From assembly GCA_905178155.1 (NCBI GenBank), contig CAJINV010000009.1, forward strand, positions 248,001 to 312,000: a stretch of DNA of 64,000 bases. Reading direction: 5' to 3'. The position numbers and the translations under genes were made by a program. Numbering within the stretch: the stretch's first letter is position 1; each line of letters begins with the position of its first letter. The notes under the pieces were generated by a model, which saw only the letters and a program-made list of their open reading frames with translations, was not told the DNA's origin and did not search any database. Origin of the DNA: Amoebophrya sp. A120. Lineage: Eukaryota > Protista > Dinoflagellata. Below, piece after piece: positions 1,838 through 47,941 of this stretch.

Positions 1838-4800
1838 ATGCTCTTCGCGCTTCTCGCCTCTGAGTGCTGGAAGGACACCTGGGGTCCGCATAATTTTGCT
1901 CGCTGTTGCTATGTGTTGAAGCGTGGATCTCAAACTCCCTACTCTGTGACGTTTCCTAGTTTGTCATGCTTGTTGCAGTGTTTGTGTTTCAATATCAAGC
2001 AGTTCGAGAGCAGTTTCTGGCTCACCTTGGTAGCTATTACAGTACCGAAGAAGCTTGCGCCATATTGTGTTTCAATATCAATTTCATGTTCATCAGACCT
2101 GCATATGATAATAAATTATCAGCCGTTGGAGAGCACCTGCACCATGGACAAAAATACTGTGAGAAGGAAGGAGTTTGATAATTTTCACCTTTAGTTTACC
2201 CTGGACCAGAGCGTGGCGAGTCAAATCGGGTGTTGGGACCACCTGGGCGATGATGCCGATGCCATCGATATCCTGTTCAAAAACGTCCCCACCCTATCGT
2301 CAAGTTGGGAAATCTGCAAGACAAACCAGCAAGCGTTGGGCGTTGCGCATGACAAGTTCTTTGGCCTCGTAGTGTAATCCTGTTTGGAAAGTTCAGCAGC
2401 GCCACAGATCTAGCACATCATGGCGATTGGAGCATGACAAATTTTCGCAGTACGACTAGAAAAAGGCTCTCCCGGGGCTCCGCATGAGAAACATTTTGAG
2501 CATGCAGATTTGCATTACAGGGGGGGGCGTTTTATTTACATAGGATAATCGACAAGTTCTACAACCGATGCTGTTTGAACCACCCAGTTGACGCCAACGA
2601 GAAGGCCTCGTCGGACGAACAGTTGATTCTGTTAGAAGATCCGCGAGGTGCTGAAGAAAATGATGGCGACGAAGCGAAGAATATTCACAATGCAGATTTA
2701 CCGGGAGATCGCGAGCAGCAGGCTGGAAGTGGAACTAGAAGCACGGCAGAGAAAAATAAAGTGCGAGAAACGCCGGGATTGTCCATAGAGCTGCGAGACG
2801 TGGTAACGTACCCGCTGGTCCTGTCCCGGCAAGAGACGTTGGCTTTGCTTCTCGCCGACCCCGACCAAGCAACTTGTGGCTGTCGGGCGCAGGATGCCTG
2901 GAGCTACTACGACGAGGCGACTGGCGAAGAAGATGCTGCCGCCGGCGCCTTCGGGATATTGCAAGACTTACGGGGTGAGAAGCGAAATCCCATTCCGCCA
3001 GAGGAGGATCACGAGGATCGAAGCCCTTCGGGTTCGCAGCTGGCCCGTCCGGCCGTTCAAGACGACCGGTTTTTCTGCAAACTGCATCGCCGACTGTCGA
3101 TGACTGAGGGAATTCCCTCCGAGATGGTCTTATGGGGAGGAACTCTGTAGACTTTTTAGTTTTTTCTGCCTGCGCAACAACATCTGAGCTGTATCAATAT
3201 TGCAGTTGCAGTCGCACTCGCACCTCGGTTAACTTACATACTTATAAGCATACGGCCTATCTATGTAGTCCTAGTCGCTGCAACATTCGTTGATCTCTAT
3301 CTCCAATGGCGATGGCCGCAGGAGCTCTGTACTTGTGATGTGCCTTCAGATAGATACATACGTGTACGAAACGGTACTAGTTGCAGGATTCAGTACAGAG
3401 TTTTTCACTGGAAAATTACCGGGAACTTTTCGAGGAGATTAGCATTGCAGAAAAAGCCGACTGTCCCTTCGGTTTCCTCGCCCTGATTCTCGCAATCGCC
3501 CAAACGAGAGCGTTTTACTTCAAAAATCCCCTGGACTCCCCGGCTTTTGTCTATGCCGAGAACGCCCTTTTCGTTTTGCTCATGAAAGTCAAGTTTTTGT
3601 ACAACGGGACTGGCAGGAAAACAAAAAAGAAGAAGAAGAAGTCGACGCCACCCTCGTCACCCAAAGGGGGGCCGCAAAAGGCCGTCGATAATACACTTCA
3701 CCGACGAGGAGTACCAGATGGGCAAATTTTTCTGAAGCCGCTGCTTGAATCGGGATGGGACTTCTTCCACTTCATCGACCTGATGCGGCAGCACTACATC
3801 CAAAACATCGGCATTCAGCCAGGTTATCTGGATTGGGAATGCATGGACGTGGACGTCCACCGTGAGGAATTCATGTTCCAGAACTTCGCCGCCTCGAACC
3901 AGGAGATGATGATGAGCCTGCACGCGAACAGAGATATCAACGCCGACAAAGCAACTGCTAATAATCCGGAAGAAGCAGAAGGGGACGACGGGATATCAGC
4001 GGGGAAAAGAGAATTTAGAAGTACTACACCTCCAAAAACAGTAGTACCTGCAAGTAGTGTACAACAAGTACTAGAAGCTGCCGCGACATCAACTGCTTTC
4101 CGTTCCGCACGAGGAGAAACCACGACCGCGGGAGCAGCTGCTACGGACGGAGCCACATCGCAAAAATCCTCAACTCTGCCTGTCAGCTTGGAAAAGACCT
4201 TTCTTTTGCCTCCGCAGCAGGATGTTTTCTTCGTTCGAAACCAACTGAGTTTTTTGTTGCGGGAGGTCGCCGGTGGCGTACTGAAAAATGGAGTTCTCGT
4301 GAGGACAGCAGGTGAGGCTGGAGCTGCTGTAGATGCTGTAGACGAGGAAAACACTTCAAGTGTCTTCAAGCTCTCTCTACTTTCAACTTCCAGCCTATAT
4401 GACGCAGTGCAGACTGTCACCGAGCCGCCACGCAGCCTGTGGAACATTTGGAAAGACTTCACACACATATCCCCGGAACAGGTACCACATCGCGGTTTAG
4501 AATGGGGAAAGCGAATGTTCGACCTGAAGAACGAGAAAAACGTGCGAAAAAACTACAACAAATTGCCGAAAAGCGGCGGAGAACAGCTGCAGGTCTCCAT
4601 TCTAACTAGTTTAGTCGCGGAGCAGCAAAAGACCGAGGGCATGCTCGTCAGAAAGGAAGCAGGTGGCGAGGAGCAACGGGCGACACAGCGCGTCGAGTCT
4701 TCAAGAGATGAACATCAAGAAGTTGCTGCACAAAGTGCAACTAGAACACGATCGGAGCTGCAGCACGAAGCAGAACAGAACCAGCCTAAGGCATGCTATT

Positions 4801-7800
4801 TCATTCACGCGTATGTGATGTTTCAGATGTTTCAGAACCTCGAGGCTACAGCGGACGTCGGGCTAAACGCGTTGGCCATGTTTCACCTTGGTGAGAACTA
4901 CCTAACGGAGCAACTTCTGTTCACAAAAACAACGGCGCATTTGCTCTCGCTAAAACACGCGAAAAATGACCAAGACCTACAAGCAGGAGAAGAAACCGAA
5001 ACCGAAAGTAAGTCGGTGTTTCAGTCCCGTCCCAATGCTCTGGTCGTGGAATTGCGGAAAGGGGTGGCAGTGACATTACATAGTTCACCCTCTACTTCTG
5101 ATTCTGAAGACGATAGTGAAGACTCTGCTGCTGCTGTTGGGTCGCCACTGCTCCATCTGGAGGCTGTTGGTGACACCTCTGTGCTGGCACCGTTGGAAGA
5201 TATTTTGTCGGATGGCACGAGGACACGAAAAGCTGCAACCAGTGCGAGTAGATCCCTGCGCCTGCGCGGGTTTCCGGTATCCTGTGTAAAAACGTCCCCA
5301 CCCCATAGTCAAGATGGGGATTTTGCAACACAAACCTAGGAGTTTTGGGAGTCGCGTATGACAAGTTGCACTCCGTAGTGTAGTGCAGGTTAGCAAGTGC
5401 AGCCGCATCACAGATCCATCTGCTCATCCTGTTCTCAGCATCACAAATTCCAAAACACGATTGGAAATGTCTACCATGGGTATGCGCGTCGCAACTGTCT
5501 TTGTCATTGCAAATCTGCATGACAACTCTTTTCACCCCCTCCCCGGGGGGAATATAAATTCGGGCGCACTGACAAAAAGAGGCGGAACACAGCGAGGAGA
5601 GTTGCCTCGCTGTCGTTACCGACCCAAGAAAGATCCGTATCGTAGACGTACGCACACTGTGCAAAAGACCCGGCAGCTTTTTTTTTCGGCTGTCCCCCAC
5701 TTATTAGATTGTCGGCAAAAGTTTAGGGATAGCGTTACTCCATTGCCGCCTTCGCGATATTTTTTTTAGCGGACCCCGCACGTACGATATCCCTGATGCG
5801 TTTCCCGCTTGGCATTAAACATCCCTGACTCAAACACATATACACCCCTCGGTATGGCACACCTCATCTGCCTAGTCGCCCCTAGGCAGGTGCAGGGATT
5901 TTCTGTGTGGGCTTTTTGTGCTTAATTATTCCAACAGGGGCTGAGTCTTTTTTTTCTGCCTTGCCAGCAGAGTTGTACATGTGGGGGGGAATAGACGGAA
6001 GTGGCGCGAGATCTTGGTGAAGGAGCAGGCGACAAGAGCGGAAATTGTACAAATCAAAAAAAAATATGTAAAGATGGCGCGCACGCGCTCTGCTTAACTG
6101 TGTGAAAGGTGTCGGCCCTGTTTGACCTGCTGCGGCAGGCAGGTGAATTCGTAGAACTGCTTCACATGTTAAGTAACGTCCACTGGCCTCCTAAAATAGT
6201 GATGAATTTATTTGCGAAAAAACCCTCCTGCTATTCCTCCCACAGCACAGCACGTCCGCCGCGGCTTCCGGCTATAGACGTTAGCTATGGCAGAGTTTGC
6301 CGAGTCGCAAAAATATTGCGAGTTGCAAAATATTTTGCGTTGCAAAGTAGTTGGGCGATGAAAGTTGGGAGCTGGGCGATGGGAGTTGGAAGTGGGCGCC
6401 GGGAGTTGGAAGCTGAGCGATGGGGGTGGTGGCGAGTTGGGTGATGGGATTTGGGCGGTGGGCGGGGAGCGATTTCGCAAATCGCGAAAGTTTTGGAAAG
6501 TTTGAAAATTGCGAGAAAAGTTTCGGCGTGGGCGATTTTCCCCCCCGTCGCAAAGTTTTAACTCACACCGCTCAGCAATAGGAGTTATATCTTGGGGATT
6601 TTCTATGCCTATGCGTGTGTCCGGTCCGAGCTCGAAACAAGGGCTCAGGGGTGGCCCCCCTGTAAGCATGCGGGTTTAGGGTTTACATTTGTATGGACCA
6701 ATGCGGCACATCCATCGACTTTCCTGGCAGTGTCGACCTGCTGTACACGGCGCAACCCCCGCGAATCACGAGCGGGGTGCGCATCTTTCGCAGCCGCCGC
6801 GCGTGAGGCTAACTATCGGGCTTCGGCAAAAGCGCACTCAGTCATGATCTTCTACTTGCCGGCCATCTTCTTGCCGCCGCCCCTGCCGCTAACTTTCGGA
6901 TACCACTCCGGCTTCCAAGCACGGCGTGGACCTGATGTTATCTCGATGTCCACCCGCTGGCGCGGCTGCCCCCGTGGATGTGGTGCAAGACCTTCCCATG
7001 TTTTGCAACACGCACGTGGCGGCAGAAGCATCAGCGCATAAAGATGTCAAGATGATAGAAGGTCCGCACCAGCGGACCAGCACGGGTAACAGCCGCCCCG
7101 CGCAACGGATGGATCGTGGGTTCAGCGGTCCCGTCCCCCCGTTTTTGTTTATCTCTAGTTTTTTAGAAATTCTACTATCTTCGAGCACAGACATCTTATG
7201 AATTCCGCTGGAGGCATCGGCGGTAGCTGCACCAATCGCCCGGCGTATTTTGAAAAACAAAAGTCCCACGGCAGTATGGGTCATAACTTGTTCGATTCAG
7301 GGCGCGCGGCTACTAAATGCCACCGGTGGGGTTCTAGATGTAGCGCCGTTTCGTCATGGGCTCGATATTCGACGGGAGCGAGAAAGTGAGGAGCTGGCTG
7401 GTCGCGGCGCACTTGGCACGAGTATTTCCGTGACATGATGGCCGGGACGGTCGTTGCTGATTCCGCTCGAGATTTTTCAACATTGAAGTTGCGAAAACTC
7501 TTTTGCATGACCTTCGCGTAGTACCACCGAGATACGAACCGTCATAGGCTTGCGAATTCTTTTTCAAAAAAACTTTTGCTACAGTTTCGCGCGGCGGCTT
7601 CCCGTGTGTAGGTTTATTCTCGACCATATCACCTCCCCGCTATTCGTCCGACAGCATAGCACGTCCGCCGCGGCTTCCGGCTGTAGACGTTAACTATATC
7701 GTGGGGATTTTCTATGCGTGTGTCCGGTCCGAGCTCGAAACAAGGGTTCAGGGGTGACCCCCCGGTAGGCATGCGGGTTTAGGGTTTACATTTGTATGGA

Positions 7801-10377
7801 CCAATGCGGCACATCCATCGACTTTCCTGACAGTGTCGACCTGCTGTGCACGGCGTAACCCCCGCGAATCACGAGCGGAGTGCGCACATCCGAATCCCGA
7901 ATCCGAAAAACAGTGTAGGGCTTTAGGGTTTTGAATATTTTGATTTTGTATCTCCCACTGCTGCATGAACCTGCTGCAAGAACTTGTCATGCAAAACAAC
8001 CTTCGGGTTGTTCCCGCGCTTCAGGAGTAGTCCTGTTGCGTGAGGGCGGCAGAAGATGAAAGATGTTGTTGATTTAGGGGGTTGAAAATGTTTGTACATG
8101 TGTGATGCAAAAGACAAAGAAATTTCGCGCGTGGGAGCGCATTATTAAGCACAACGGGCGGGTACCGTTCCCGCCGTCACACAATCATGGAAAATTGAAA
8201 ATTGAAAAAAACAGCGTGGGGCCCAATGAAAAAAAAAAATCTGCATGACAACTGTGGAGTGGCCGGGAGATGATGGTGATGGCACTTTGGTGTCCGCCTG
8301 AGCCACCCGCCCTGCGTCTCAAGCCATCTGCGGCCATGGGACAATGGGGGGGCAAAGTGTTTCGCATTTTGTTTAGCATGACAACTCTGGAGTGGGGACG
8401 TTTTTCCTCAGGATATCCTTTGCCAGATATTCTACGGAAGCTGCTGTACACCTCGATCAATATCAACGGCATTCTCGCTATGGAAGCGCCAGGATTGAAA
8501 TCGTGAAAGTTGAAATAGTTTCTTGTGATGCGTAAAATGCAACCCACAAAATGCCTGTCTTGCAGAGTAGGCAAAGGAGGCAGATTGTAAGCCTGTTGAG
8601 GGGTAGAAGTAGAGCTGCTAAAGTAGCATGACAAAAGGCGTCTTCCTTACTGAAACAGCATTACAAACAGGATCTCGGTTCTACCCAAATTTGTCATGCG
8701 CCACTTGAAAACTAGGCGCCAACTGGTATCCGTTTTTTGCATTACAAATTATTTCAACTTTGTCGATTTCAATCCTGACACTCCCATACTCGCGCAACTT
8801 TCCCAGTGCCGGCGGGTCTGGGTGAGCGACGGGGGGCGGAAGGAACCCGGGTACAGCAAGCCGAGCAACCATTTGGTGCAGCAGGCGCGCCCACCAAGGT
8901 ACTTCCGCATGCAGGTGTTTCCGCACCGCGAGCTCGCTTCCAGTTACATCCGGTACAAAAAAGAGCCGTTTTGCAACATGGATCCCTTTCGGGAGATTCT
9001 GCAAACCGTTTCCGCGGACGAGCCGCTGCGGATTTCGGAGGGCGGCGCGCACTTGGGCGACTGCGCGCTCCTGGCCGCGAGCCTACTGCCCACCGCCCGC
9101 ATCACGGCGATCGAACCGCTGCCGGACGCGTCCTTTCTGTTGCAGAATTCCGTGCTTTTGAACGAGCGGCTGGACTTTCCGAATCGCTTGCACGTGGTGA
9201 AGGCGGCCTTGGACGACGGCACGGTGCGGAAGCTGCAGCTCACCCACTTGCCCGGCCGCTCGGCGTCCGCATCGGCAAACGACGGGAATTATGTCTGGAA
9301 TTGCAACAAAAACACGCCGGAGCACCTGTGCCGGAGGCACGACGTCGAGGTCTTGAAACTGGATGAGGTGATTGATTTCGCGCACGTGGTGAAGCTTTCT
9401 ATCCAGGGCAACGAGATCGCGGCCTTGCGGGGGAGCAGCGAGCTCATGCAGCGGTTTGACGTCTGCAGCTGGTTTTTCTACTTCGGCAAGGTGAACTTGG
9501 GCACCAGGGTGGTGGTGAAAGTGGATACGACTACATCTGGTAATTATTCGCAGTTGACCACGTCGGCGGAATCGTTGAAAGCAGACGGTAATGCAGCGGA
9601 GAAGGAGGACGGCCTTGCGGAGGAGAGACAAAAGCGGTTGAATCTGACGGTGCACTATCCTTTCCCAACCTGGTTCATGTCCTCGCGGAGCGATGTTGAA
9701 CTACACCAAGAAAGTAGTACAAACTTCGAAGAAGCACCTGCCAAGGAGTCGTTCGTACAATTGCGAGATTGTGCCACCACGGCGCAAAACGTCAAGAACA
9801 AGGCAGAGAACCCCGAGAACACCTCCCAGGAAAACGCAAGCTACGCGCGCTGCGTCTCGGTAACCGCTTCGGAGGAACTGTGGAGGTTGTTGGCAACGAT
9901 GGACCTGTACTACGTCAATTACGCGAAGAAGTTGGTTACCGCGAGGCGGATCGAGAACGCGTTTGACTTGCACTTGACCATGCAGGCGAACTTGAACCTC
10001 CTCGACGTGGACGAGGACGCGTTTTGGAAGGAGTACCTGATTATCAAATGTAAAAATGTCTGGGTCTGGAAACTTGTAATGCTGGGTGGCGTCTCATGAT
10101 GAGGCTACAAATGCTGGCTCAGCATGACAAGTTTCTGAGCTCCTAGGTGTTGCCTATTCTGCATGACAAACTGCGCTTCTGCATCACAGAAGCGCGTAGC
10201 TCTTGGGTAACGTGCGTGACAGATTTAAGAGTCATGCCAGACAAGCATGACAAACATGAATTCTTCCAGACCCAGACATTTTTACACTTGATACTGATCG
10301 CCACACAGAAGACCGGCCTGAACAAGCGATGCGTCAAGTTCGTCACCCATGTGTGGAGGCAGTTTCGCTTGATGTAA
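1838..10377 (+). CDS. Large (~1332 aa) probably secreted protein with N-terminal CW...CC motifs and a C-terminal FkbM-family SAM methyltransferase domain; predicted exons 1838-1912, 2195-2268, 2553-3126, 3387-5277, 8421-8478, 8794-10041, 10299-10377
   Basis: FkbM motifs in ORF 8696-10099: ISEGGAHLG, AIEP, HVVKAAL, LKLDEV, VVKLSIQGNE. Exon lengths sum to 3999 nt with no internal stop when two GT-AG introns (1913-2194, 3127-3386) and four TIR elements plus one TSD each are removed. Exact junctions within the TSDs are ambiguous. Confidence 0.7.
2269..2547. mobile_element. Introner/MITE-like non-canonical intron, family B (279 bp), TSD ATCGA
   Basis: Left end TATCCTGTTCAAAAACGTCCCC; right end GGGGCGTTTTATTTACATAGGATA (inverted). 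ATCGA at 2264-2268 and 2548-2552. Removal gives in-frame ...DAIDKFYNRCC... Confidence 0.9.
6224..6783 (+). repeat. LTR-like ~255-bp direct repeat, copy 1 (interrupted by element 6286-6580)
   Basis: Aligns colinearly with 7632-7886 (e.g. CACGTCCGCCGCGGCTTCCGG, GTCCGAGCTCGAAACAAGGG, GGACCAATGCGGCACATCCATCGACTTTCCTG). Confidence 0.9.
6286..6580. mobile_element. TAT...ATA element (295 bp) inserted in repeat copy 1; internal AGTTGGG-like tandem repeats
   Basis: Ends TATGGCAGAG / CTCAGCAATA (8/10 inverted). Absent from repeat copy 2, which reads GACGTTAACTATATC. Copy 1 has element plus 5 extra nt (TTAGC...GGAGT). Confidence 0.8.
7632..7886 (+). repeat. LTR-like direct repeat, copy 2 (empty site); contains GGGTTTAGGGTTT
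   Basis: Direct alignment to 6224-6285 plus 6586-6783. Confidence 0.9.
8479..8788. mobile_element. Introner/non-canonical intron, family C (310 bp), TSD CTCGC
   Basis: ~55-bp TIR: TATGGAAGCGCCAGGATTGAAATCGTGAAAGTTGAAATA / TATTTCAACTTTGTCGATTTCAATCCTGACACTCCCATA. CTCGC at 8474-8478 and 8789-8793. In-frame NGILA|QLSQCRR after removal. Confidence 0.92.
10042..10293. mobile_element. Introner/non-canonical intron, family A (252 bp), TSD CTGAT
   Basis: 30-bp near-perfect TIR TATCAAATGTAAAAATGTCTGGGTCTGGAA / TTCCAGACCCAGACATTTTTACACTTGATA. CTGAT at 10037-10041 and 10294-10298. Removal gives KEYLIATQKTGL...FRLM*. Confidence 0.95.
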
Positions 10378-18156: not shown

Positions 18157-19386
18157 ATGATGGGTGGCAGCGGCGGCGGCAGAGCAGCCTCAGCTGGTGC
18201 TGCGAGTAGTTCTTCCTCAAAATCTTCCTTTTGGACGGGCCGCTGGTCCAACATAAACCCCTCGCACCTCACCCCGGAGTCCTACAAACGCGACGACTGG
18301 GGCTGGCTGTACTACACGCCAATTCTGTTCCTGCAACTGATCTTTTTTTTCGCCATTTTCCGGTCCCGAACAATAAGGTTTCAGCAGTTGCTGCTCTGCC
18401 TGTGCGGCTTTTATTGGTGCGTGATAGTCTACTATGTGCAGTACTTCTCACCGACAAGCGGAAAGGTGCTGTTTTGCGACGTCACGTGGACCAGCTGCAG
18501 CTACTGCCTCCACCAGAGAATCAGCTACCTGCCCGAGTAATTTTCCACTTTTTCGATGTTTCGTATATATGTTTGCGATCATGCTCGTGATACAAATGCA
18601 TCTGCATAGTTGTACACCATTACAAAACAACACTATATTTCTTGATGTGGTCGTCGTATCACGTTGCAGTCGCGGCGATTGGATTAGGACCATTGGTTCC
18701 TCGCTCCTTCTTCTAGAATTGCTGTTGCAGCATGCGTATAAATTTGGCTAGATTCGATTCGTATTCCACAACAGGTTTTTTGGGCTTCTGGACCAGCGAC
18801 AATCTAGCCTGAACCGTTCCATCGCCGACACGAATCTGCTGTATTTCCTAGCGCATGTGTTGTACCCCATTCTCCAGAAACTTCCCCTCATTGGTTACTA
18901 CATGACGCACCTCGGGTTCTTCGTCAGCCTGGCCATCGCGGTGGGGTGTGGATATTTGACGCTGATGACCTACTATCAAATGTAAAAATGTCTGGGTCTG
19001 GAAGAATGCAATTTGTCATGCTAAATCTGAAGCATGCAAAAATCTGTGTTGCATGATTACCAAAAGTCGTCCAGTTTTGACCAAGTCGGGAAGCAGTTTC
19101 TCATGCAGGATAGGCATGGGAAAGATCGCACAGAATCTGTCATGCTATGTCCTGCATTCCAGACCTCATGGGTCATGAAATTCTGCATGACAAATCGCGC
19201 ATTCTTCCAGACTCAGACATTTTTACATTTGATACCTACCGCGAAGTGCACGACGTTTGCGTAATCAATTTGATTCTGTGCGTCATCAACTTTGGGCTGT
19301 GCCGGTCCATGTGGCTGCACTTCTACAGGTTGATTATCGACAGAAATAAGAACAAGGTGGTTTCCATGGTCAACAAAACAGAATGA
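18157..19386 (+). CDS. Multi-pass membrane protein of unknown function (~241 aa); exons 18157-18536, 18775-18973, 19240-19386
   Basis: GT-AG intron 18537-18774 plus family-A introner; the joined frame is open (726 nt) with several hydrophobic segments. Confidence 0.75.
18974..19234. mobile_element. Introner/non-canonical intron, family A (261 bp), TSD CCTAC
   Basis: TIR TATCAAATGTAAAAATGTCTGGGTCTGGAAGAATGC / GCATTCTTCCAGACTCAGACATTTTTACATTTGATA. CCTAC at 18969-18973 and 19235-19239. Removal gives LTLMTY|REVHDV in frame. Confidence 0.95.
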
Positions 19387-27105: not shown

Positions 27106-29058
27106 ATGATGGATCCGCCTCCCGAGCAAAATAGAGTTCCAGGTGGGACACACATGCAATCAGTAGAAGCCTTCGTTAATCCCTCGCCACTGCAGCGTGA
27201 CCACCAACCCAGTCGCAGTTCTTCTTCCTCAAAGTACAAGGAAACCAAACGCGTCGATGCGAGCGACTTTGGGAAGTCGGTCGCGAGCGGGGCGGTATCC
27301 GGGTTCGCAGTAAAGACACTTACCGCGCCACTGAGTCGAATGACGATCTTGCTCCAAGTAACGCCGCCCACGGCAGCGGGTGTTCCTCGTGGTGCAGCTA
27401 CGTGTGCGACCGGAAAACAACTTCCAACCTCTCCGATCTTGACCGGAACAAATCCCAGTTCCTCTTCGACCAGCGGTCTGAACAAGCCAACGAGCGTGAA
27501 ACTGGGACCTGCCATATCAAAATGGAAAATCCCCCCACCCCATATCAAAACGAAATTTCTGATGCTGGATTTGCGTACACAAATCAGGTTTGTCTTGCAG
27601 TAGGGGACTGCAGGCCGATATCATGCCACTGCGCAGAGGTTTTGGCCTAGGCGCTTAGCATGGGGAACGCCTATGCTGTAGGACCAACAGCATTACAAAC
27701 CGCCTGCATAATGGGGCGGAGCGGATGCCGTTGCTTTCTTGCAAGACAGACACGATTTGTGGTCACGAATCAGCATCGCAAATTTTTTGAGGCGTTCCTT
27801 TTCGATATGGGGAGGGGGGATTTTTCCTTACAATATGCCACATCAGCAGGCACGACCATAGTACAACAGAAGCCTGGCTCGACCACAAACTTCGTCCCCA
27901 CGGGGTCCCTGGACTTGCTGCGGAAAGTTGTGCAGCAGGAGGGTGTCACTTCCTTCTGGAAGGGAAATTGGACCAGTATTCTGCACAAAGGACTACTGAC
28001 AGGCTTAAACTACGGATTGTTCGAGACAATCAAGAACAGCCTGCGTCCGATTTGGAGATCCGATACAGACCCCGGGTTTCTTGCACGAACGGCGGCAGGG
28101 TACGAAGAGTTAGAGTCCTCCCTCTGGAAATGTTCAATGGTTGTTAAAGGTTTGCATTTGCAATTTGAAAATATGACTTTTTCGATACCGCTTGATTTCG
28201 TCCAGAAACTTCTATAATCCAATGTGCCGCGTCTTCAAGCGCAAGTGCAACCTTTAGTATACATTCCGGAAGAACTAGTTGTACTACGGTAGGAAAAATT
28301 GTCACACAAACAAAAGGTTTCTCGCGAGCTCGGTTTCCTTGACCATCGCCTACCCCTTCGACCTTATGCGCACCCGGTTGGCCTGCGAGCAGAGAAACTA
28401 CCACCTCTCGGTCCCCACTGGTCAGCAGTGGCTGGGCGTTTACCGGGATGTGGTCAAGACGGAAGGACCACGTGCGCTGGTTCGCGGGCTCCCGTGTACG
28501 CTGTTGTGTCAGGGACTCAATGTCGGGCTCAATTTCGGCATTTACGAGACGCTCAACGTCTATCTTTTGCGGTACAGAATTGTAGCACTGTGCCTGCGTG
28601 TGTTGATCTTTCAGTACTCTTTTTGGAACAGTACCGAGCAAGCAAAGTCTTTTCTTTTTGCGAAAATTTGGGATGAACATTTTATCGCGACATACGATGC
28701 ATTTTATCGCGACATACGATGGTCAGTCTCCATAAATTGAAATTCTACCACCTTCTACAGCGAGCAGCATACCCGAACTACATTCCTAGAAACCATGGGT
28801 TGTGGGGCCGTCGCAGGGATCACTGCCTCAACTCTGGTGCAGCCTTTGGACCTGATCCGCCGGCGCCAGCAGATGAGCAACGAGAGCTGGACGGTGCTCC
28901 AGTGGGGTCGGCATGTTGTGCAGAGCCACGGACTGCGGGGGCTGTACCGGGGCTTGGTTCCTGAACTGCTGAAAGTCGCGCCAGCAGTGGGGCTCAACTT
29001 TTATATTTACGAATGGATGCGACAAGAAGTGTTTCAGACCAAAGTACATCCAAGATGA
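27106..29058 (+). CDS. Mitochondrial carrier (SLC25) family protein (~406 aa); exons 27106-27514, 27841-28099, 28317-28571, 28761-29058
   Basis: Three carrier repeats with signature-like motifs APLSRMTILLQ, YPFDLMRTRL and QPLDLIRRRQ, plus EGVTSFWKGN, EGPRALVRG and HGLRGLYRG. One introner and two GT-AG introns (28100-28316, 28572-28760). Confidence 0.92.
27515..27835. mobile_element. Introner/non-canonical intron, family D (321 bp), TSD TGCCA, ~70-bp imperfect inverted arms
   Basis: TATCAAAATGGAAAATCCCCCCACCCCATATC / GATATGGGGAGGGGGGATTTTTCCTTACAATA. TGCCA at 27510-27514 and 27836-27840. Removal gives KLGPA|TSAGTT in frame. Confidence 0.92.
28678..28720 (+). repeat. 21-bp tandem duplication (CATTTTATCGCGACATACGAT x2, ~22-bp period) in an intron
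   Basis: Seen directly in sequence. Confidence 0.85.
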
Positions 29059-30027: not shown

Positions 30028-33000
30028 ATGGCGCGCCGTCGTGGAGGCATCTTGGATGCCCTGCAGCGGTCGCGCTGTAATAGACACTACCTCTTCACGC
30101 GAATAATAGGGGCGATGATAAACCTGGCCCTGTTCTTTCCGGGCAACATAGGCGTAAGACTGATAACAGAGGCTAACGGCTATCGGTATTTACCAGAGCA
30201 AAGGCGTAATAAACAGAGGAGATACCACGACCTGAAGATAACCAGGAGACGACCGACGTCAACAAAACTAGCATCTTCGGAAAGAACAATTGCTACAGAC
30301 GAAAGAACAATTGCTACAGACGAAAGAACAATTGCTACAGACGATAGAGAGAAAATGTCTGGAGGTCTGAAGCACCTACCAAAAGTTTCTACAGCGGAAT
30401 CGATAGTACAGGAAGGAAATAAGCAGGACGATGGCAGGAGAGAGGAGGAGTCGCAATCTCTATCTGCTTTGGAGATGCGCCCCGAGCCTCACCAACCGCC
30501 TGCCTTCAATCTGAAGGAGGAGTTAGGACGTCGGACGAGGAGACGGCCTGCACGTCCGCGTACCGTCATCGAAGGTCGTGACACCGCAGATGAAAGGGTG
30601 ACTCCTGTGCCCGGTGGAAGTAGGGAGAATAATGCTACTTCCGCCGCTGCAATACCAATAGATAGACCGCCGAAAGAAGAATATACCGTCTCGCTCTCGG
30701 TCTCGCAGCTGCTGGAGGAGAAGCCGCGCAAGCACGATGTGAGTGACCTGCCCCGGCGCAGACGTAGGGAAGAGCACTCAACATCCAGTGAAGACGAGGA
30801 CGGTGGACTGCAAGAGTATGATCACGATGACGAACTACAACACAATATTGCACGAGAAGAGCATGATCTGCCTGGAGCAAAAGGTGAAATGTACCAGCAA
30901 GGCACGACTCCGGACGAGAGCGACCGCTGGCTCGGATCCCGTGTAACGTCGACAGGGAGACGGTCTCGTCCCACGCTTGCAGCTACAAGCGGATCATGTT
31001 CGGGAATACAAATGGATTCAGGACAACCGGGACCCTCACCTTCTCCTAGTAATCATCAGGAGGGTCAGGCTGTAGAGCATTATAAACACGAGGGTAGTAC
31101 CCTTCTAGAACAAACAGCCAGGAGCGTTGCAGGAGGAGTTAAAAATCAAGCTACTCCCAGTAGCAGTGAGGACCAAGAAGAGCAGGAGTTTCTCGATCCT
31201 GAAATAAGTTTTGGAACAAGTGCAGGACCCGAACAAACACGAACCAACGTAGAAGGAGATAAAGACCGCGGCCCTTCCGAGGACTCTCAGTCGACTCTGA
31301 CTGCTTCGGCACGACCAGAAGATTCAGACTCAGATGAGTATCCTCTGCACGACCCAAAAGTTAGGAATAACCCCCCCAGATTGATATCAAATCCAACAAC
31401 CCCCGTCATTTCTACGGAACCCGGTGGAGATGGCGACTTTAGTAGTGACATTGAAGTTGTGGCCACGAAAAAGACATCAACAGCACCAGCTGCCCAGTTC
31501 GATTCCGATGCGAATCCCCAGGGCCAGGGCGACCACTGGCGCATTATAGGAACAACACGGCGACCTGGTAATGGAACTACTAGGAACGAAGAGTCCATAC
31601 TTCTGCAGCTTGACCATACGGCCAAGATGAAAGCAAAAACCACCGCCCGCCGAGTAGGAGTGCATTTGTTGCAGCAAAAGACGAGCATGAGCAGACAACA
31701 GCAACAGGTGAAACTGGGTATGGACGCCGGCGGCTTGGCTGGCATTGCGATTCTGTGCACGGTCGGAGGCATGGGTTTGCTGTTTATGACGTTGTACTGC
31801 CTCGGCGTCCTCGAGTGCAACAGCGATTCGGAGTATGACTACGAGGAGAAGCGAAGACAGGAAGCCAGGCGGGCCAACGAGTACTGGAAGGCTTCCAATC
31901 CCGTGATACCCATGCCCGGCAACTACAATAACCACAAGGATCCGAACAAGCAGTCGCACGGCAACCGAGAGCATCTCGGCGGCGTGGCTGCCGCCATGAG
32001 GGCCGCCGACAAGTTGAAGAAGGGTCTGAAGTCGAGGGACCGCAAGGACGACAAAGACAAGAGGAAAAAGAAAGGGAAGGACACCACAACTACCACGTCC
32101 GACTCGGAGTCCGACTCGAGTCACCGGAAAAAGAAGAACAAAGCGGGAGGGCGTGATCACGGTAAGGACCAGCATCATGACGGGAAGAAGGGCAAGAGGA
32201 GCAAGCAACAAGCCACAACGACCGAGACTACGGACTCCGTGGAGGAGTCCGATTCGGATTTTACCAACCCGTTTGCGGTAAACCACAAGGCCGGGCCGCC
32301 CGTGCAGAAAAGGGCGGGTCCCGGGTTTGCAGAGCGGGTCTCGATGACGCAAGCTGCCCATGCCCACGGCGCACTCAACGCCCGGGCCTCGGCGTTTCTC
32401 AACTTGGCCGGGTTCGGAGTGAACAAAGGCAATAAAGCGAAACCCCAGAAGAAGAAACCGCCGAATAAGAAGGAAGCCGCGCACACCACCGATGGGGAAC
32501 ACCACGACACCTCTAGCAAATCGCAAGCGTCATCGAGAAAGGCGAACGCAGGAGGAGCGGTGCACGCGCTACGGTTCGACGAAACCGATTCGGCGCCAAA
32601 AGGATCCCCCAAGATAGACGCGAAGGAAGCGAAAAGACAAGAGAAAGAAGCAAAGGAAAGAAGTAAAAAGGAAGAGAAACCTTATCCACCGGAAATTTGG
32701 CTGTCAGGCGGTTTCTTTTAATTTTTTCAAGGGACCAGACAAACGTGGACGTGCATTTTGCGCCGCTGGCATTAACTTTTGTATTTGTTCTCCACCAGGG
32801 TCTCAATTTGTGCGTGTTATCTTGCATCTTCATAATTATCACGATGCCTTGCGCCAGAGCCAGTAATGTAAACAAGTTACAGGAGAAACGTGTTGTGCGC
32901 ACTCTCTCATGATGACTGAGGCTTTCTGTGATTGCGTGCTGTGCCATGATCATTGTTTTTTCTACATCATTGAGCAAGAAATGGGAACTTTTCTTCCACG

Positions 33001-33257
33001 TATGGGTATGCGAGTCCTGCTCTTGAACATCAATATCTTTCGCTGACTCCAACTTTTGCTTGCATACGCTGAAGAAAGAAAAGAAGGATGCCGGCAAGGA
33101 GGATAAGAAGGAGAAAAAGAAAGGCCATGCTCCTGACAGTGACGACACCAATAATAGTGGCTTTTTTGGCAAGAAAAGGAGCATGGACACTCGAAGGAAA
33201 AAAGAGGCCGTACAACAAGACTTTGATGTCATCCCCAGTAGCCATTTTGATCCCTAG
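30028..33257 (+). CDS. Type I membrane-like protein 1 (low-complexity ectodomain, single TM, K/D/S-rich tail); exons 30028-32682, 33072-33257
   Basis: 897-aa ORF; TM GGLAGIAILCTVGGMGLLFMTLYCLGVLEC; the K-rich tail continues in frame after a decayed introner. Start codon uncertain. Confidence 0.7.
30280..30342 (+). repeat. Coding tandem repeat, 21 bp x3 (ERTIATD)
   Basis: GAAAGAACAATTGCTACAGAC repeated three times. Confidence 0.95.
32683..33066. mobile_element. Aged introner/non-canonical intron (384 bp) with degenerate TIR and TSD
   Basis: TATCCACCGGAAATTTGGCTGTCAGGCG versus CGCTGACTCCAACTTTTGCTTGCATA; flanks AACCT/CGCTG; removing element+5 nt restores the frame to KKEKKDAG. Confidence 0.65.
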
Positions 33258-37200: not shown

Positions 37201-37826
37201 CGGCCCGCGCTTCCAAGATTGTGTCCGATGCGCCCATGTCGGGCAAGGACGCGCCCACGTCGGGCAAAGAGAAAGACAAAAGCGGCGGGGGCGCGCGGAA
37301 GTCGATTTTAGCGGCGGCAATGATGGGCGGCAGCAGCGGCGCCAAGAGCGGTATTAGCTCGGTCTCGAAGAGCGGCCTTACCTCGACCTCCGGAGACAGC
37401 GAGATAGGCAGCAGCGCCGACAGGAAAAAGAAAAAGGCGACGGGCTCGGGTTCAAGAAAATCCGTTGCCCCCGGCGGAAGAAAGTCTGCCCGCCCGTCAA
37501 CAAGAAGCAAAACGCCGACGAGTAAGAAAATGAAGAGCAAGAGTCCAGCCTCCATGAAGTCCAAAATGGATAGCACAATCGTTTCTTCGCCTATGGACGC
37601 AGAAAATAGAAGCTCGGTACTGAACGCGCGAGCCACGGCGCGCGCTTCTGCCATACCACCGATTGATTTCGCAACCATCCAGCCCGACGCCGGGACCACC
37701 CTGGACGACGCCAGGGCTATTGCGCGCGCAAGCACCACCGCGCCGCGGCTCAGCACAAAGCCCCGCCCATCGTCGAAAAGCCCGCGGGCGAGCAAACGGG
37801 GAGGTTCCCGACGGTCGGTCAGGTAG
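34248..37826 (+). CDS. Type I membrane-like protein 2 (small Cys cluster, single TM, S/K/D-rich tail)
   Basis: 1203-aa ORF (first ATG 34248); TM LGLVMGLVVLGMVLVGTILISILFFAGVLTC; QSFSNKAAT-like x4 repeat near 36264-36370. Confidence 0.75.
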   Translation: MMKWIWQQEGRGGPGPAASGSSQETKDDDHEERPASGSAVPNDLDVRRPRGSSIPSRHSCAADINVERRWILGRQPSRRTSEAGNTTSASATSAMRRHQVRRNPRDKRCRILMLPRCPSSGRTHHHRDATVHRCKRRQTTTTSLQVPSGPASVAERGPFARKVVQRRGTAAFVYGCRDVAPASSAGKNINLPMWRFILATLLGTTTTTLFAEPFWSTFLVHHRPLVSEDEPDHKRCGCSNHHELRRTYSKQNSLLQTRARIGKETRLNSLPSGRSTSAAWSFVQVVQGYQLQVTRRGKRSSRAKMIGRRSSAKYRRDRGGDVPRRSSALVRAILKGRAGTRNISKPREGNSVASVVGVAEVDQAPPSPSAQTRDHRPETSKIGGQVPVLADNAVSSSSSNNNEQRDSKADTVESRSGTNFQELKSSVSSRAEKRTTKEEEQQRQQSHTQLDSASSASSQRNKHQQESSTARGRMHQHRLFSLASREGQTEQRARSGEECVETKSCTSSTRQRCYVKEGTVEEPTSAFCLDTGSCETEQNSETWNCGVLMTEEEAALSVSAEATNLGLVMGLVVLGMVLVGTILISILFFAGVLTCGDADTTASPNSSGKRNKKGSRDSTDTSDSNNSSDEEKKKSKRRKGRKSSSDDSDDSGAKKKKRSSSEDASDTSGDVHQSFSNKAATQSFSNKAATQSFSQKAGTQSFSQKANQSSGKKKNNSDSDDAPTSSTPGSDDDSESGDGSNLNSYTSNMHSSEAFSGGHQGGQSHESFHGSKGTKDKKQLLSKNSSDDTLFHEGSGNIGSFSNVGMGSFSGSARSSTKDESKKDKKDKEKQRILEKQKEKERQKAEKEREKKEKKEMKKEKKQENKVPDKEKVYDTHDNFKLDSGLAGGAPPGRASQAPGGARPSFFDAAFGQLGKQTPAADKDKKKDINSSKDTDQGEQKGMGSFSGTSTSESSSGDDSKNASKSKKSSRKPQAGGSAIAKAMAARASKIVSDAPMSGKDAPTSGKEKDKSGGGARKSILAAAMMGGSSGAKSGISSVSKSGLTSTSGDSEIGSSADRKKKKATGSGSRKSVAPGGRKSARPSTRSKTPTSKKMKSKSPASMKSKMDSTIVSSPMDAENRSSVLNARATARASAIPPIDFATIQPDAGTTLDDARAIARASTTAPRLSTKPRPSSKSPRASKRGGSRRSVR

Positions 37827-39192
37827 GTTAGGTTCGAAGTGGTGAGGCATTCAAAGATTAGGCACTACTTGTTTCAAGCTTGACTTGATAATCTCTTTAT
37901 GTAAAAATCAATTATGTTTGTTTTTTTCCGCATCTTCGCCCATTAGTTTATCTTTTCATTTTCTGTAATTAGAAGTGTGTAAACCGAAATTCCTCGTGTT
38001 GTACCATGTGATAAGCAATACATATTATCTCAACCGGCAGCTTTTTATCTGTTGCATGACAGCGCCCATTTCTAGACCTAGACTTTTAGAATACACCCAA
38101 TATGCTATTCCCAAGATGAAACTCAAAGTCTCTCTTATTCTTCCCGTTTGATTGATGTTGATCTGGTTCGGCTTCGGTTGTTCTTTGGTCTTACGTAGAC
38201 CTTGACCTTCTGATTTTTCAGGTGAGTGTCTGTTCGACGATTCGCATCGTGTAGAAGACTTTCAAATACTAGTATGGATCTAAAGACGAGATGAACAAAT
38301 TAGTATCGGTGCATGCAACCTCCTTATCGACGTTCATGGTATTGACTCGTCCAGTGTGAACTGCAGAAAGAATAGACGTACCCGTTGTGCATCATAAGCT
38401 TTTGTGCAGCCATGAAAAGCACATACTTGCATGACAAACATAAGTAATTATTCTCTCCACCATCGGTTTCTGCTCGTCGTTCTCCTTCTCGTTTGTGAAG
38501 TGGATAATTCTGTTCGGTTGTTGTGTCTTCACTTAGCTCATACCGTTCGGTTGTGTTGCCATGACGTGCAAAACAATTTGCGGCGTAGCACGAGCCCATC
38601 GTGGCATCGTCGTTGCTTCTCTGTCTTTCGCAACAGCAATTTGCTTCGTCGGTCGTACGTATACAACTTTCGTGCGACAAGCCAAGGCGCGCGCCACACT
38701 CGTCCAACTTCAGAGAAGCTAGTAGGCGCTTTCCGTTTCCTCGTGTTTTTTGGTCTTTCCGAAACAAGCTCAATCAGAATTACGTAAGTAGGGCAAACAT
38801 CAAGATGACGCCATGAATTCTTCCCAAACCACAGCAAAAACTAAACCCCATTGTACTGTGTACCGTTTCCCCCCACGAACAATATTCACCCAATTCCAAA
38901 GTCCGCGAGCATAATGTTGTGCGACATAAGTATTCATCCCATGTAAGTGCTCATATGATGCGGCGATTGACGTAACCTAAACATTTACATTAACCCAGAG
39001 CCAGAAAGCGAAAAGTCAGATCGAAGTCGTTTCAGCCGCGTCCAAAAAACAGTATGCCCGTAGTTATTTTCAAGGAACCCGATTGGGCTAGTGTTAGTGA
39101 AGCGAACCGCAATATAATGCGGAGGAGCCGGTGTAGTTGTACTCCAGAAAGAACTCTACGTACTACCAGTAATTAGTTTACACAAGATCAAA

Positions 39193-42100
39193 ATGTCAGC
39201 TGAAACAAATATCTTCACGACGGCTGCAGCTGGCGGGACTTCTAAAAGGTTATCGGTCATACGGTCGCTTTCCTTTTTCTTCGTTTCCAGCACCTGGACT
39301 TCTTTTTTGTCGGTTCCAAACCTGTGGGGCGGGCGGCAAGAACGAGCCTCGTCGTACGACGCAGCTTTCAACAAGAATGATGTAGCACGACGAGGTAGTA
39401 GTACAACAGGGGCTGACGGAGCAGGCCCAGTAGAAGACGACAAACCATGGACAACAAGACCACCGTCGACAGCACCACATATCGTAGATGTTCCGGGTGG
39501 TGGTCCAAGTCGTATGGACAAGATATTCGTCGCGGGGTACCAGGTCGGAAGAACGAGAACGTCGAGAGGAACAAAGAATAGCCGGCAGGCAGCATTAAGT
39601 CGTGCAGACTCTAAGCGGACAACTAGGCCGAGGCGGTCGCAAAAGTTTCCTCCGAACAAGAACGCGGCGTTTGGGCAAGAGGACGTTGAACATCGAAACG
39701 TAGACGAGAAGCCAAACGACTCGCTGACGCGGAGCCACTATGAAGAAGACGCTAGTAGTAACACATCTGGACCACAGCGGCAGGAGCACCCTGATCAACT
39801 ACGAGACGATGTTGACCGGCGGGTCGTCCAACGAAGTTCTCCTTCTTGGAACTCGGGACGCGAGACCACCAGCGTTCTTCAGCGCATCGTGGAGCGGAGC
39901 GAAATCAAAAGAGCTGCAGCGGAGACGACGGTGTTGAGCAGCCACGTTGAGGCCGCGACGACGTCCTCGCATCAAAGGCACATGAAAAACAAAGCGGAAA
40001 TGGGGCGAGAGGTGGTCGCAGCGAAGAAAATAGCGGCAGACCAAGCCGCCGCCTCCGCAGCAGCTGCTGTAGATAAAAAAGCCGTCGAAGGGAGTGACGG
40101 CAAAAATACGAATATCGTGCCGCCTGACGTAGAACTTCAATTTCAACAAAGTTCTTTTGCTCCAGATAGCAAGGCAGATGCAATGGAAAAGCTGAAACTA
40201 TTTGAAGAGTTTCAGGAGTATCAGGAGTGGCTGAAACAGAAACAGCAAAAGAAGATAAGTACCGTGAGCGACACGACAACTGCGGCCGGCGTGCACGACA
40301 AGGGTACGACGAGAATACAACACGTCACGGAATACAAAACTCCTGTTAAAATACAACGAATAAGCCCTGCTCCTGCTCCTGCACCAGAGGAAACGCCTGC
40401 TTCTTCTCCTGCAACCGTGGAAGTGCCTGCACCTGCTTCTGCACCAAAGACTACAACGCCTGCTGCTGCACCAGAGGTGGAGCAGGAAACGCCCGACCCA
40501 GCAGCTGCGCATCAACGTCCATCGCCGGCTGAGCAGACTGTTACCCCCGACGCACCGTCATCGTCAGAGCCAGCGCCTTCACCGGTACAGCATCCACCGG
40601 CCACGGAAACGAGTGAACCGGACGTCGAGATGCTGCAAGCACCGGATGGTCCTCAGGCGGCGCCGGTGCCGGCGACACCTACACCTACACCTTCGACAAA
40701 ATCGTTACCAGGAACTGAGCCAGAACCCCCACCACCAACCCACGGCGCGTTGAGTTTTTTCGACGATAGCGAGAAAACCGACGAGGCCATACCAGGTCAA
40801 TTTGGCAGTGGGAGTCTAGGTGGTGGGTCCGAACTCAGTGGTGTGAGTGAAGTAAGTGACGCGCACACGACACCAGCGCCGTCTTCCGGGTTGCCAAATA
40901 ATGTTACCGGCGGCGGGGCGTCAAGTAACCAAACTTTCGCCGTACCATCAGAAGTACTTTCAAGCGGGGAGGTAGGAAAAGACGAGGCGAAGTCGGGGGA
41001 GGCTGCTACCAAAGACGCCTGCATGACGCTGGCGTTGATTTTTGGCGGGGTAGGAAGCTTGTTGTGCCTCGTGCTGGTAATGGTGATGATCTGTCTTGTT
41101 CTTCACTACAAGGAGGGGTACGAAGAGAACGCCTCTATAAAGGCGACCCTCGCGCGATCGCAAATTTTACGCCTCAATGACGGCACCATCGCGGTCACGC
41201 CGACCGTCACAACCACTCCCGCCCCCGACACGACCACCGAGTCACCTCCTATGAACAGAGACGAGGTGCATCTCACGTCGTCCCAGGAATCGCCGCACCC
41301 AACATCCCACCTACACAGTAAGGGGAGTGCGGACCGAATCGCGAGTGGGGAGCAAAAAGACCTACAAGCTGACGACAAGTCGCAGCAGGGTCTTCCGTCT
41401 GGGCAGGTGCGACAGGCAGGGGATGGCGCCAATAATCTTAATCCGCTCAATCTGCAGCCGGGAACCGAAGAGCCAGCACCAGTACGCACGGGCGACGGAG
41501 TCCTTGCCGACGTTCTCGCAGGCGACCACCCTTTTCCTGCAGGAGACGATGAAGGCACTCCTGCGACGGGTGCGGCTACGGGGCCACATGAGTACGGAGA
41601 AGCCCCTGCAGCCGCAGCCGGGGGGAGGGCAAGTATGGTGGTTTACAGCGCCGCCCCTCCGGGGGTCCCCCAGGAAGACGAGCAATTTGGGGACGAGATC
41701 AACAGTTTCGCGCCCAGTCTTGAGTCCACCCAGCAGGACAACAAGAAGATTTTGTCCAGCTTCGGCAAGGAACCAGCCGGCAGCAAAGAAGCCAAGCAGC
41801 TCCAGTCCGGAGACCCGTCGAACCGGTCCAGGGGCGTCGCACAGATTCCGGACATCACCACTAGTGTCACTCCCGCTGGAGTTGTACCTACTTCGAGAGC
41901 AGGGCAACTAGGTGGTCCGGCGCAAGACGAGATATTATCTGCAGCGGGAGCGCCGTTGCTGGGCGCCCACGTGAGGGAATACAACAGAGGGGTCGCCGGG
42001 CCGAAGAGCGCCGGGTCCCACGATAGCGCAGGTATGAGCTACGACGAGCACCACGAGGAGGCAGCCGCGAGCAAGGCCGTCGCGGCACAGCAGCCGCAGA

Positions 42101-43405
42101 GCTTCCTGGCGTCGCACAGTTTGGCGCGTGGGGGACGCATTTCCAAGCAGATGTCCAAGTCGCTTTCGGGGATTGTTTCCTTCTCGGAGGAAAACCCCGA
42201 CGACGCTGGTATCGCTGACATGGCGGAAGCGGGTAGGCAAAAGATAAAGAAATCCAGGAACAAGGAGAGTGCAGCAGCCAAGGAACTGAGCAAGTCCTTG
42301 TCTTCGAAGAAGAGCATGAAGAGCAGCAAGTCGCTAAGCAACAAGTCTATGTCCAAGAAGAACGTGTCCGACGCTTCGGGGCATTCGGATCGGGACTACG
42401 ACTACAGCAAGAAGGTGAAAAAGAGCGCTTCTGGCCGAGACCTGCGAGAGAAGGACCGAAATCGATCGGCGAGCGCGAAGAAGAGCAAAAAGCAGGGAGG
42501 TGACGCCGCTGCTCCCTCCAAAGACCTTTCGTACGGCAGCGGGAGCACCGCCAGTTTCGTGGATCTCATCAAGTCCAGCCACGCGCCCGCCAGTCACGCG
42601 GCCGCGCCCGCCAGCGAGGCTCCGCGCCAACAAGGTTCGTTGTTTCTGCAGCGTGCGCTGGAACACCACGAGGCCGTAGGAAAGGTGATGGGCAACATGG
42701 GTTCACAAACCTCACAGAACCGGCTCTCCGCCGCAATATCGTCGGGCCGGCTCTCCCAGTCACTAGGCTCCCAGCAACCAGCAATTCCTGGTTCCCTGCA
42801 ACCAGCACAACCAGGCTCCCAACTAGCCGCACCACAAAGCTCCTTCGGCGCTCTTGCTGACACCATCCGCAGATATCCTACCACAAAATCGCGAGCCTAG
42901 TTGTTTGTCAGTCTCAGCATTTGTGGGATTGTTATCGTAGAAGTAATAGTAAAGACGATCATCATGATTAATGTTTATGATGATGATCGAGTGTGTCAAA
43001 TGATCATGAGAAACAACAAAACACTGCTGGCGCTGCTATTAGTGCTTCTCGCCAGCAGGAAGTTAAAGTTTCTCGATTTCGTTTCCTTGCAGATTCTTGA
43101 ATTCTTGTCCCGATGATGCAGTTCCTGACAGCTTGTGGCTTAAGATTTTGTCTTGGGATAAGGAAGCATCTAAACTTGCATCGAAGGTATCGTCCAAAGC
43201 GTCCTCAGGTGGAAGTCGCTCGGGACGGTCCGACGCTTCGGCGAAACGCTCAATGAAAAAAGAAAAGATGAGAAGCCGAAATAAAAGTGGCGATCTTCGT
43301 GGCGAGCCGAGGAGCGGTGCGCCGAGAAGCGGGACTGGAGGTGGCCGGAAGTCAGATCGACCTCCTTCCGTCATCGGAAGCGTCTGGCAACCTGGCGGGG
43401 AGTAG
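39193..43405 (+). CDS. Type I membrane-like protein 3 (P/A/T-rich stalk, single TM, S/K-rich tail); exons 39193-42873, 43166-43405
   Basis: 1235-aa ORF; N-terminal hydrophobic stretch; TM LALIFGGVGSLLCLVLVMVMICLVL; frame continues after the introner. Confidence 0.75.
42874..43160. mobile_element. Introner/non-canonical intron (287 bp) with diverged TSD
   Basis: TATCCTACCACAAAATC / GATTTTGTCTTGGGATA (14/17 inverted); flanks GCAGA/AGGAA; removing element+5 nt is in frame to ASKLASKV. Confidence 0.8.
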
Positions 43406-47482: not shown

Positions 47483-47941
47483 GTTCTTTGTCCTTTGAAG
47501 TCAGCACTTCTCCATGCGCGAAGAAGCCCGATGAGAACATAAGACGCATCTTCTCTATCCGCATCGAAAATAAGTGTCGGCCGGGGCATCCTGTGCTCAC
47601 GTCGTTCGATACCGAGGACAGCGAAGCTTTGACATCGTGCTTTATTGTTCGATGAAAGTTCTTATTCTTAATCTTAATCACGACTCGTCGGAGAGCGTAA
47701 GAAGAAGAACCCAGGCCGGAGATAAGTAAGATCACGAGAGAATGTTTGCATTGTCGTGTCGTACATTGATTCATTTCATGGTCGTAGAGGTGATGCTGTC
47801 GTATGCGAAGCAGTTGGCACCGTGTAAGTGTCAATCGAATTTACATATTTATTGGTTGCTCTCGTCTTCACTTGATGCGATAAGCGATAAAGGTTTTCAT
47901 AGCTCACATTTTCGTCTAAGATTCTACTTCCAACGAAAAAC

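Follow-up and report, generated by a model that had tools for sequence, protein, structure and literature searches.

Non-coding TAT...ATA introners with 5-bp target-site duplications in Amoebophrya sp. A120, and a probable single register for their removal

The window analysed here is a 64,000-nt stretch of Amoebophrya sp. A120 (contig CAJINV010000009.1, positions 248,001-312,000, forward strand), the name that is also the source name of two public proteins encoded in it. Its genes are interrupted by eight elements which, at the coordinates given by the initial annotation, start with TAT and end with ATA in 8/8 cases (Table 1). Perfect 5-bp target-site duplications (TSDs) flank five of the eight, as that annotation had it; of the rest, one retains 3/5 matching positions and two have none. 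It had also claimed that GT..AG pairs are absent from the ends. This is correct for all eight elements in all six registers in which the element plus 5 nt can be removed, and the GT..AG feature of canonical U2 introns is thus found in 0/8. An A-run occupies positions 11-15 of the terminal inverted repeats (TIRs) in seven of the eight and is missing at 8479. TAT..ATA pairs with a TIR match of at least 14/22 and a perfect 5-bp TSD number five in the window vs 0-1 per shuffle (40 shuffles, two of which gave 1). The anatomy and the organism name agree with the suggested link to the introner elements of Farhat et al. (2021).

Table 1. Elements, nested inserts and host genes in the window (GCATGACAA, subterminal motif discussed in the text)
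Feature	Coordinates	Strand	Remarks
TAT..ATA element, 279 bp	2269..2547	+	TSD ATCGA; 75-77% identity to a multi-copy family of the related loci
Host gene with FkbM methyltransferase domain	3582..10377	+	Three elements inside
Composite element, 279-bp core 88% identical to related copy	5278..8415	+	Decayed TSD (3/5); RNA intron 5277-8419
Nested insert in 5278 element	5528..8236	+	A-rich 3' end; 17-bp direct repeat at GCATGACAA motif
Second nested insert or duplication, 133 bp	8243..8375	.	Direct repeat of about 20 bp at GCATGACAA motif
310-bp element	8479..8788	+	TSD CTCGC; 315 nt removed in RNA contigs
252-bp element	10042..10293	+	TSD CTGAT; 257 nt removed in RNA contigs
261-bp element	18974..19234	+	TSD CCTAC; 266 nt removed in RNA contig
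Host SLC25 mitochondrial carrier gene, 406 amino acids spliced	27106..29058	+	One element; canonical introns 28100-28316, 28572-28760
321-bp element	27515..27835	+	TSD TGCCA; 326 nt removed in three RNA-type runs, retained in DNA run
Degenerate singleton, 384 bp	32683..33066	+	TSD absent; frame restored by element+5; conflicts with public gene model
Degenerate singleton, 287 bp	42874..43160	+	TSD absent; public protein reads TIRRASK

Two host contexts differ from their first description. The sequence at 5278-8415, described as one element, does have TAT..ATA ends but is composite, with two inserts nested in an element of 279 bp. The insertion said to lie within a conserved SLC25 carrier is indeed in an SLC25 gene. 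However, its site is a low-complexity linker and no conserved stretch.

Removal from transcripts was followed in the Logan contigs from X1, X4 and X5, runs which were labelled RNA by guess and whose contigs skip three GT-AG introns, with GTA donors in all three. They skip five elements with frames intact. Each joint corresponds exactly to element+5: 5276>8420 (3143 nt), 8473>8789 (315), 10036>10294 (257), 18967>19234 (266) and 27509>27836 (326). The contig lacking the 18974 element also skips the canonical GT-AG intron 18537-18774. Precise removal, initially claimed for eight elements, is therefore established for five, while 2269, 32683 and 42874 are without RNA confirmation: the 2269 junction was not seen among the joints listed (15 of 24), and the RNA-type contigs do not cover the other two. 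At 42874 the public protein P0001 agrees with element+5 removal. Restoration of the open reading frame (ORF) in all eight cases holds for frame arithmetic only, which joins open frames in 8/8; the open frame upstream of 2269 is only 24 codons long. Non-canonical ends are likewise general, with the qualification that the RNA intron at 5278 starts with GT (flanking G and the T of TAT) and ends with CT. In the DNA-like run X2 (about 44-fold over 26900-43700, the stretch to which the comparison is confined) the joint 27509>27836 is absent and coverage is unbroken over 30315-43700, across 32683 and 42874. The raw RNA runs X9 and X10 contributed only 144 and 3 matching reads, mostly from one element copy of 90-95% similarity, and are silent on window junctions. 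At 18974-19060, about 140 reads of the 2026 run X9 represent this unspliced copy with other flanks and little else, which indicates that the element family is present in another strain or sample.

These data bear on the possibility that the elements are gene-killing insertions of miniature inverted-repeat transposable elements (MITEs), or assembly artefacts, and that their hosts are pseudogenes. Some RNA-type contigs do contain element-flank junctions, as loose ends, and the three elements without RNA confirmation could be accommodated. However, spliced contigs with intact frames refute this explanation for the other five, the DNA run covers the element-exon junctions, and conserved enzymes are restored in related loci by removing many elements (see below). 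We regard it as highly improbable.

Related copies were collected with one TIR pattern, which gave 133 metagenome loci. Of these, 131 were kept, all from the metagenome contig set JACKZZ01 (458 kb of loci). Lone 21-22-nt matches without a second end were taken as chance and dropped before counting: L096 and L127 from metagenomes, and L134 and L135, the only matches of three viral-contig scans (0, 2 and 0). Six of the eight window elements match multi-copy families of these loci (75-95% identity); 32683 and 42874 match none of them. In the seed family a perfect 5-bp repeat flanks 104/126 copies, and repeats of any other length of at least 3 bp flank none. When TAT was not required, a scan gave 293 hits that have a 5-bp repeat, and 246 of these start with TAT. 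De-duplication left 244 elements in 16 clusters, the seed family's cluster holding 152, and the TIRs of the clusters diverge beyond position 13. Among 337 full-length copies the TSD matches at 5/5 positions in 247 (a share inflated by building the library from perfect copies), at 4/5 in 41, at 3/5 in 14 and at fewer in 11; a TAT or ATA call is missing in 24, seven of them at locus edges. The fixed TAT/ATA terminus proposed at the outset is thus dominant in the scans but not absolute, as 17 copies carry one altered end, 16 of them at coding-like sites.

Insertion sites show no preference that would supply splice signals. Host strand was assigned by a codon model (95% agreement among elements of one locus), and in 167 gene-oriented TSDs no enrichment of GT or AG was detected: the bases follow flank composition, with G at -1 in 45/167 (50.7 expected) and AG at +3+4 in 16/167 (13.7 expected). 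A GT..AG pair is permitted by 4.5% of 488 oriented TSD cases. Both orientations occur in 11/11 subfamilies, the largest at 34:17, and coding-like sites hold 87% of 306 elements, compared with 54% of 2141 sites chosen at random. Element density can be high. An 8-kb locus (L028, 1211-7044) contains 13 elements, and removing 11 of them gives one 284-codon UDP-GlcNAc dehydratase-like frame; eight elements lie within a 418-codon frame in L009 (282-3130). The frame control over loci is noisy, with junctions in long ORFs in 199/286 cases for +5, 201 for +2 and 143-158 for other offsets, and it fixes the removal offset modulo 3 only. RNA joints and related-locus copies agree in describing a multi-family set of transposon-derived, non-canonical introns removed as the element plus one TSD length. 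They are short, non-coding, multi-copy, bounded by TIRs and flanked by a TSD of constant length, as MITEs are. They also resemble published A120 introners in having a direct repeat within the 3-5-nt range, a TAT-starting TIR followed by an A-run, repetition, and removal without GT-AG ends (5/8 by RNA).

A perfect TSD leaves six possible placements of the cut, whereas a decayed TSD fixes it. The decayed TSD at 5278 gives one such case: in both RNA contigs that cover it (X1, X4) the intron is 5277-8419, a non-slidable junction that lies one base ahead of TAT and four bases past ATA (-1/+4), found although nested inserts stretch this element to 3.1 kb. At 42874, protein P0001 fits -1/+4 or 0/+5 and excludes the GA..GG and AG..AG registers. 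In L028 (4504-4806), registers 1-4 keep M-R-GGEIF, to be compared with M-H-GGEIF in PDB 2gn4, while 0/+5 leads to M-P and 5/0 to V-R. Only -1/+4 fits all three. This one direct and two indirect cases make -1/+4 the probable register. Mutation polarity in decayed TSDs gave no register, the substitution spectrum being symmetric, and a search of orthologs for further registers returned only L030 itself and, for L005, only repeat-family paralogues that do not usefully span junctions. A fixed register or a placement artefact was not found described for Amoebophrya in a literature search that left most subscription journals outside, and figures S19-S25 of Farhat et al. may show boundary positions.

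The published splice sites of A120 are diverse, and the TSDs provide a possible reason. When 244 TSDs are taken in both orientations and the most GT-AG-like register is chosen for each, the resulting 16-dinucleotide spectra match those published for A120 fam2, a family of 9716 introns (PMC12130899), with r of 0.98 (5') and 0.97 (3'). Any single fixed register fits the published spectrum at one end at most. A -1/+1 model gives a poorer fit (0.92/0.89), and the +5 RNA joints exclude it. Random 5-bp TSDs combined with register choice thus reproduce the spectrum, so that one anatomy is enough to produce the many splice motifs reported, and the published diversity may be an artefact of placement. 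The fit is agnostic on whether the annotation or the cell chooses the register. It therefore serves equally well the alternative that a permissive spliceosome, brought in by the hairpin, picks the most GT-AG-like cut within the duplication and that the published mixture is real. A120 has nearly the full set of spliceosomal proteins (PMC7789003), and the 5278 junction is itself the best-scoring register (GT..CT). However, P0001 fits neither of the best-scoring options at 42874, GT and AG are not enriched at insertion sites, and independent choice of two sites would lose the exact 5 nt once the TSD has decayed, while 5278 keeps it. We consider permissive choice unlikely.

In line with the initial statement that the window encodes no transposase, none of the 150 longest of its 214 ORFs of at least 100 amino acids matched such a family. 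The proposal of one transposase type is supported indirectly by the termini, TSD length and subterminal motif that the families share, while no enzyme was found. All 11 subfamily consensuses contain this GCATGACAA-type motif, in 2-5 copies each, and 13 of its 15 occurrences in the window are inside elements. Its repeats may represent transposase-binding sites. As a branch point the motif is unsupported, since it shows no strand asymmetry (mismatches 66/1568 vs 55/1365, p 0.85). Lineages of hAT transposons with 5-bp TSDs are another candidate source.

The observations establish the anatomy of the elements, the 5-bp duplication, removal as element+5, random targets, both orientations and, at one non-slidable junction, a -1/+4 cut. 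The interpretation that we think probable is that these are non-coding TAT...ATA introners mobilised by one integrase-type cut-and-paste transposase and removed at a fixed cut, 1 nt before TAT and 4 nt after ATA, regardless of the bases found there. The non-coding elements would be spread by a transposase that has no target preference and cuts with a 5-bp stagger. The host would then remove 1+4 flanking nt with each element, an offset equal to the duplication, so that the mRNA would be restored exactly and insertions into exons would be harmless. The cut itself might be defined by paired or symmetric ends rather than by GT/AG.

Several observations weigh against this interpretation. The register is drawn from one direct junction, which is also the most GT-AG-like choice at that site, one annotation and one conservation argument, and the transcript evidence consists of Logan contigs of a single sample from one study, with a guessed RNA label. 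At 32683 the junction used by the public protein P0002 (model GSA120T00003901001) lies about 60 nt upstream, and the protein ends in a different frame. In L030 (4329-4608) a TAT..ATA element has an 8-bp direct repeat, and removal of element+5 would leave one extra in-frame codon. In the old singletons 32683 and 42874 the GCATGACAA motif is absent or present as one variant. ORFs of the related loci contain no transposase either (150/175 searched), none was found in A120 according to the available text of Farhat et al. (PMC7789003), and Gozashti et al. (2025) assign A120 introners to several transposable element (TE) classes in the text available (PMC12130899). TIR positions 4-8 are paired in just 51-79% of 208 copies, and G-U pairs do not significantly outnumber A-C pairs in the stem (229:192, p 0.08; 72:56, p 0.19 when counted per element). 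Finally, changes in the outer two bases number six at the acceptor (3') end vs one at the donor, the latter with a conflicting strand call, and two are unoriented, so that protection of the donor-side TA is weak. The upstream join of the public model at 32618-33070 falls in a purine-rich stretch and is either a mis-annotation or a real exception.

The last of these points concern how the ends are read. Structure-guided excision, as first proposed, has indirect support from the lack of GT/AG selection and from the occurrence of both orientations, but the signal of pairing at the RNA level is not significant. The stable parts of the TIR are TAT, which is fixed by the selection of copies, and positions 11-13 (96-98% paired). 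Neither the comparison of G-U with A-C pairs nor that of sense with antisense folding energy is significant (p 0.08 and 0.09), although positions 21-30 alone give p 0.011 post hoc. The ends are predicted to pair in six of seven folded elements, those of 32683 being the exception. The bias of changes between donor and acceptor, together with the GTA donors of three canonical introns, gives a weak hint of spliceosomal catalysis. Judged from sequence, a modified U2 spliceosome is slightly favoured as the catalyst, as the -1 register yields an N-TA donor like the GTA donors of host canonical introns.

A structure-guided nuclease and ligase, as proposed for euglenids, could act at the same fixed register and would differ in catalysis only. 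Removal independent of orientation and sequence, the predicted pairing of the ends, the lack of the strand asymmetry expected of a branch point in the GCATGACAA-type motif, and the failure to detect U1 snRNA in A120 (PMC7789003) are all compatible with it. So is the analogous Euglena code N3-CDG...CHG-N5-6, which is thought to use distinct factors (PMC12501133). However, T and A are protected, if weakly, on the donor side, N-TA equals +2,+3 of the three canonical donors seen, position +2 of the predominant 5' motifs stays T in A25 as in A120 (PMC7789003), and the G-U excess is not significant. A nuclease-ligase remains a tentative reading, which we consider possible but doubtful.

The shared ends could also have another origin. 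Several unrelated enzymes may have mobilised the families, with the ends being alike because the host splices only such ends. TIR divergence past position 13 and the mixed published classifications (PMC12130899) are in line with this, and selection by the host against other insertions into exons would retain those whose duplication length matches. However, the subterminal motif, the termini and the TSD length are common to 11/11 subfamilies, and the persistence of copies with altered TAT/ATA at coding-like sites (16/17) implies that the host does not need a perfect TAT. Such a multiple origin seems distinctly unlikely to us.

The elements can be compared with described systems, as far as the available text of the cited papers goes. 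Farhat et al. report a TAT-starting inverted repeat followed by 7 nt and an A-run, direct repeats of 3-5 nt, a hairpin, RNA support and variable splice positions, and they compare introners with MITEs (PMC7789003). The elements described here are of the same kind, but their repeats are uniformly 5 bp and one -1/+4 register is proposed where published repeats and splice positions vary. The A120 families of Gozashti et al. are also TIR DNA elements of 150-320 bp. One of them, fam38, is listed as 'Ginger, 5-bp TSD, TA/TA Termini', with Copia/Gypsy-like ORFs and an integrase-like candidate, whereas most of the 58 families are 'Unknown', with automated TSDs of 2-11 and mixed splice mechanisms (PMC12130899). 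Unlike fam38, the copies analysed here contain no ORF. IS3EU/GingerRoot elements share TIRs and TA..TA termini, but their TSD is usually 6 bp (PMC10045372, PMC6839031), and a 6-bp repeat occurs in 0/126 seed-family copies. IS481EU elements have TIRs and similar termini (TNT..AYA) but TSDs of about 4, 15 or 25 bp instead of 5 (PMC10045372, PMC6839031), and Ginger1/Ginger2 end in TG..CA (PMC6839031) rather than TAT..ATA.

Two groups of non-canonical introns are also comparable. Euglenid nonconventional introns work in a similar way, with TIRs, slidable direct repeats, a cut at fixed offset from a paired motif and a suspected MITE origin. Their signature N3-CDG...CHG-N5-6 differs from N1-TAT...ATA-N4, seen here at one exact junction, the lineage is unrelated, and their excised RNA is reported to be circular, with distinct factors thought to be used (PMC12501133, PMC11282704). 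Those of Fritillaria borealis are likewise MITE-derived, non-GT-AG and flanked by TIR and TSD; they are removed by an adapted U2 spliceosome. In the available account they prefer AG-AC and AG-AT, whereas the acceptor dinucleotide is random here.

The element system is real, largely confirmed and already published. The initial suggestion of novelty was overstated: TAT ends, short repeats, RNA support, the MITE comparison and a family with 5-bp TSD had all been reported. What is added, a uniform 5-bp duplication with a probable -1/+4 cut and an artefactual variety of splice sites, is plausible, and since the elements themselves are known the contribution is a sharper open question. Should -1/+4 hold as a fixed cut, the seemingly chaotic splice sites of A120 would reduce to one rule and gene models could be corrected. 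The match between transposon and host splicing, if true, means that exon insertions cost little and would explain mass intron gain. In its widest form, the proposal would be that tens of thousands of A120 introns follow N1-TAT...ATA-N4, with an offset equal to the stagger of a single integrase-like transposase clade, that their motif variety is artefactual, and that Euglena-like position-defined splicing thus had a second, independent origin. We hold this to be finely balanced and lean slightly against it.

Introners are themselves interrupted by other sequences. A-tailed inserts with a 16-17-bp direct repeat at the GCATGACAA motif are present in two subfamilies (window 5528-8236; L033 4209-4935), and L079 1-232 has a 92% similar 5' end just past the corresponding motif position of a third element. 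The insert is possibly a retroposon targeting introners; the window copy is likely to be a retroposon. A Pfam search of its ORFs of at least 113 amino acids gave no match. Within it, 6222-7930 contains direct repeats of 67 and 175 nt spaced by 1.1-1.4 kb, together with a 20-nt tandem run and telomere-like motifs (GGGTTTAGGGTTT). The interval 6221-7921 is missing from one RNA-type contig, indicating that a shorter version of the insert exists elsewhere.

Other TAT..ATA pairs in the window, including 46752-46838, 5702-6902, 20685-20796 and 47802-49771, were treated as chance. The last has a 5-bp repeat but a TIR match of only 13/22, and it encloses a 432-codon ORF. The first falls in one exon of a small multi-exon gene (46711-47480) that we take to resemble IFT25/HSPB11. 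Three large, tandem, co-oriented low-complexity genes occupy 29974-43405, each with a lysine/serine-rich tail and, by eye, one membrane-like hydrophobic stretch. They have no Pfam match, and the two that were searched for homologs matched only themselves. Outside recognised elements, 58 nt at 2011-2068 are 88% similar to L044 847-904.

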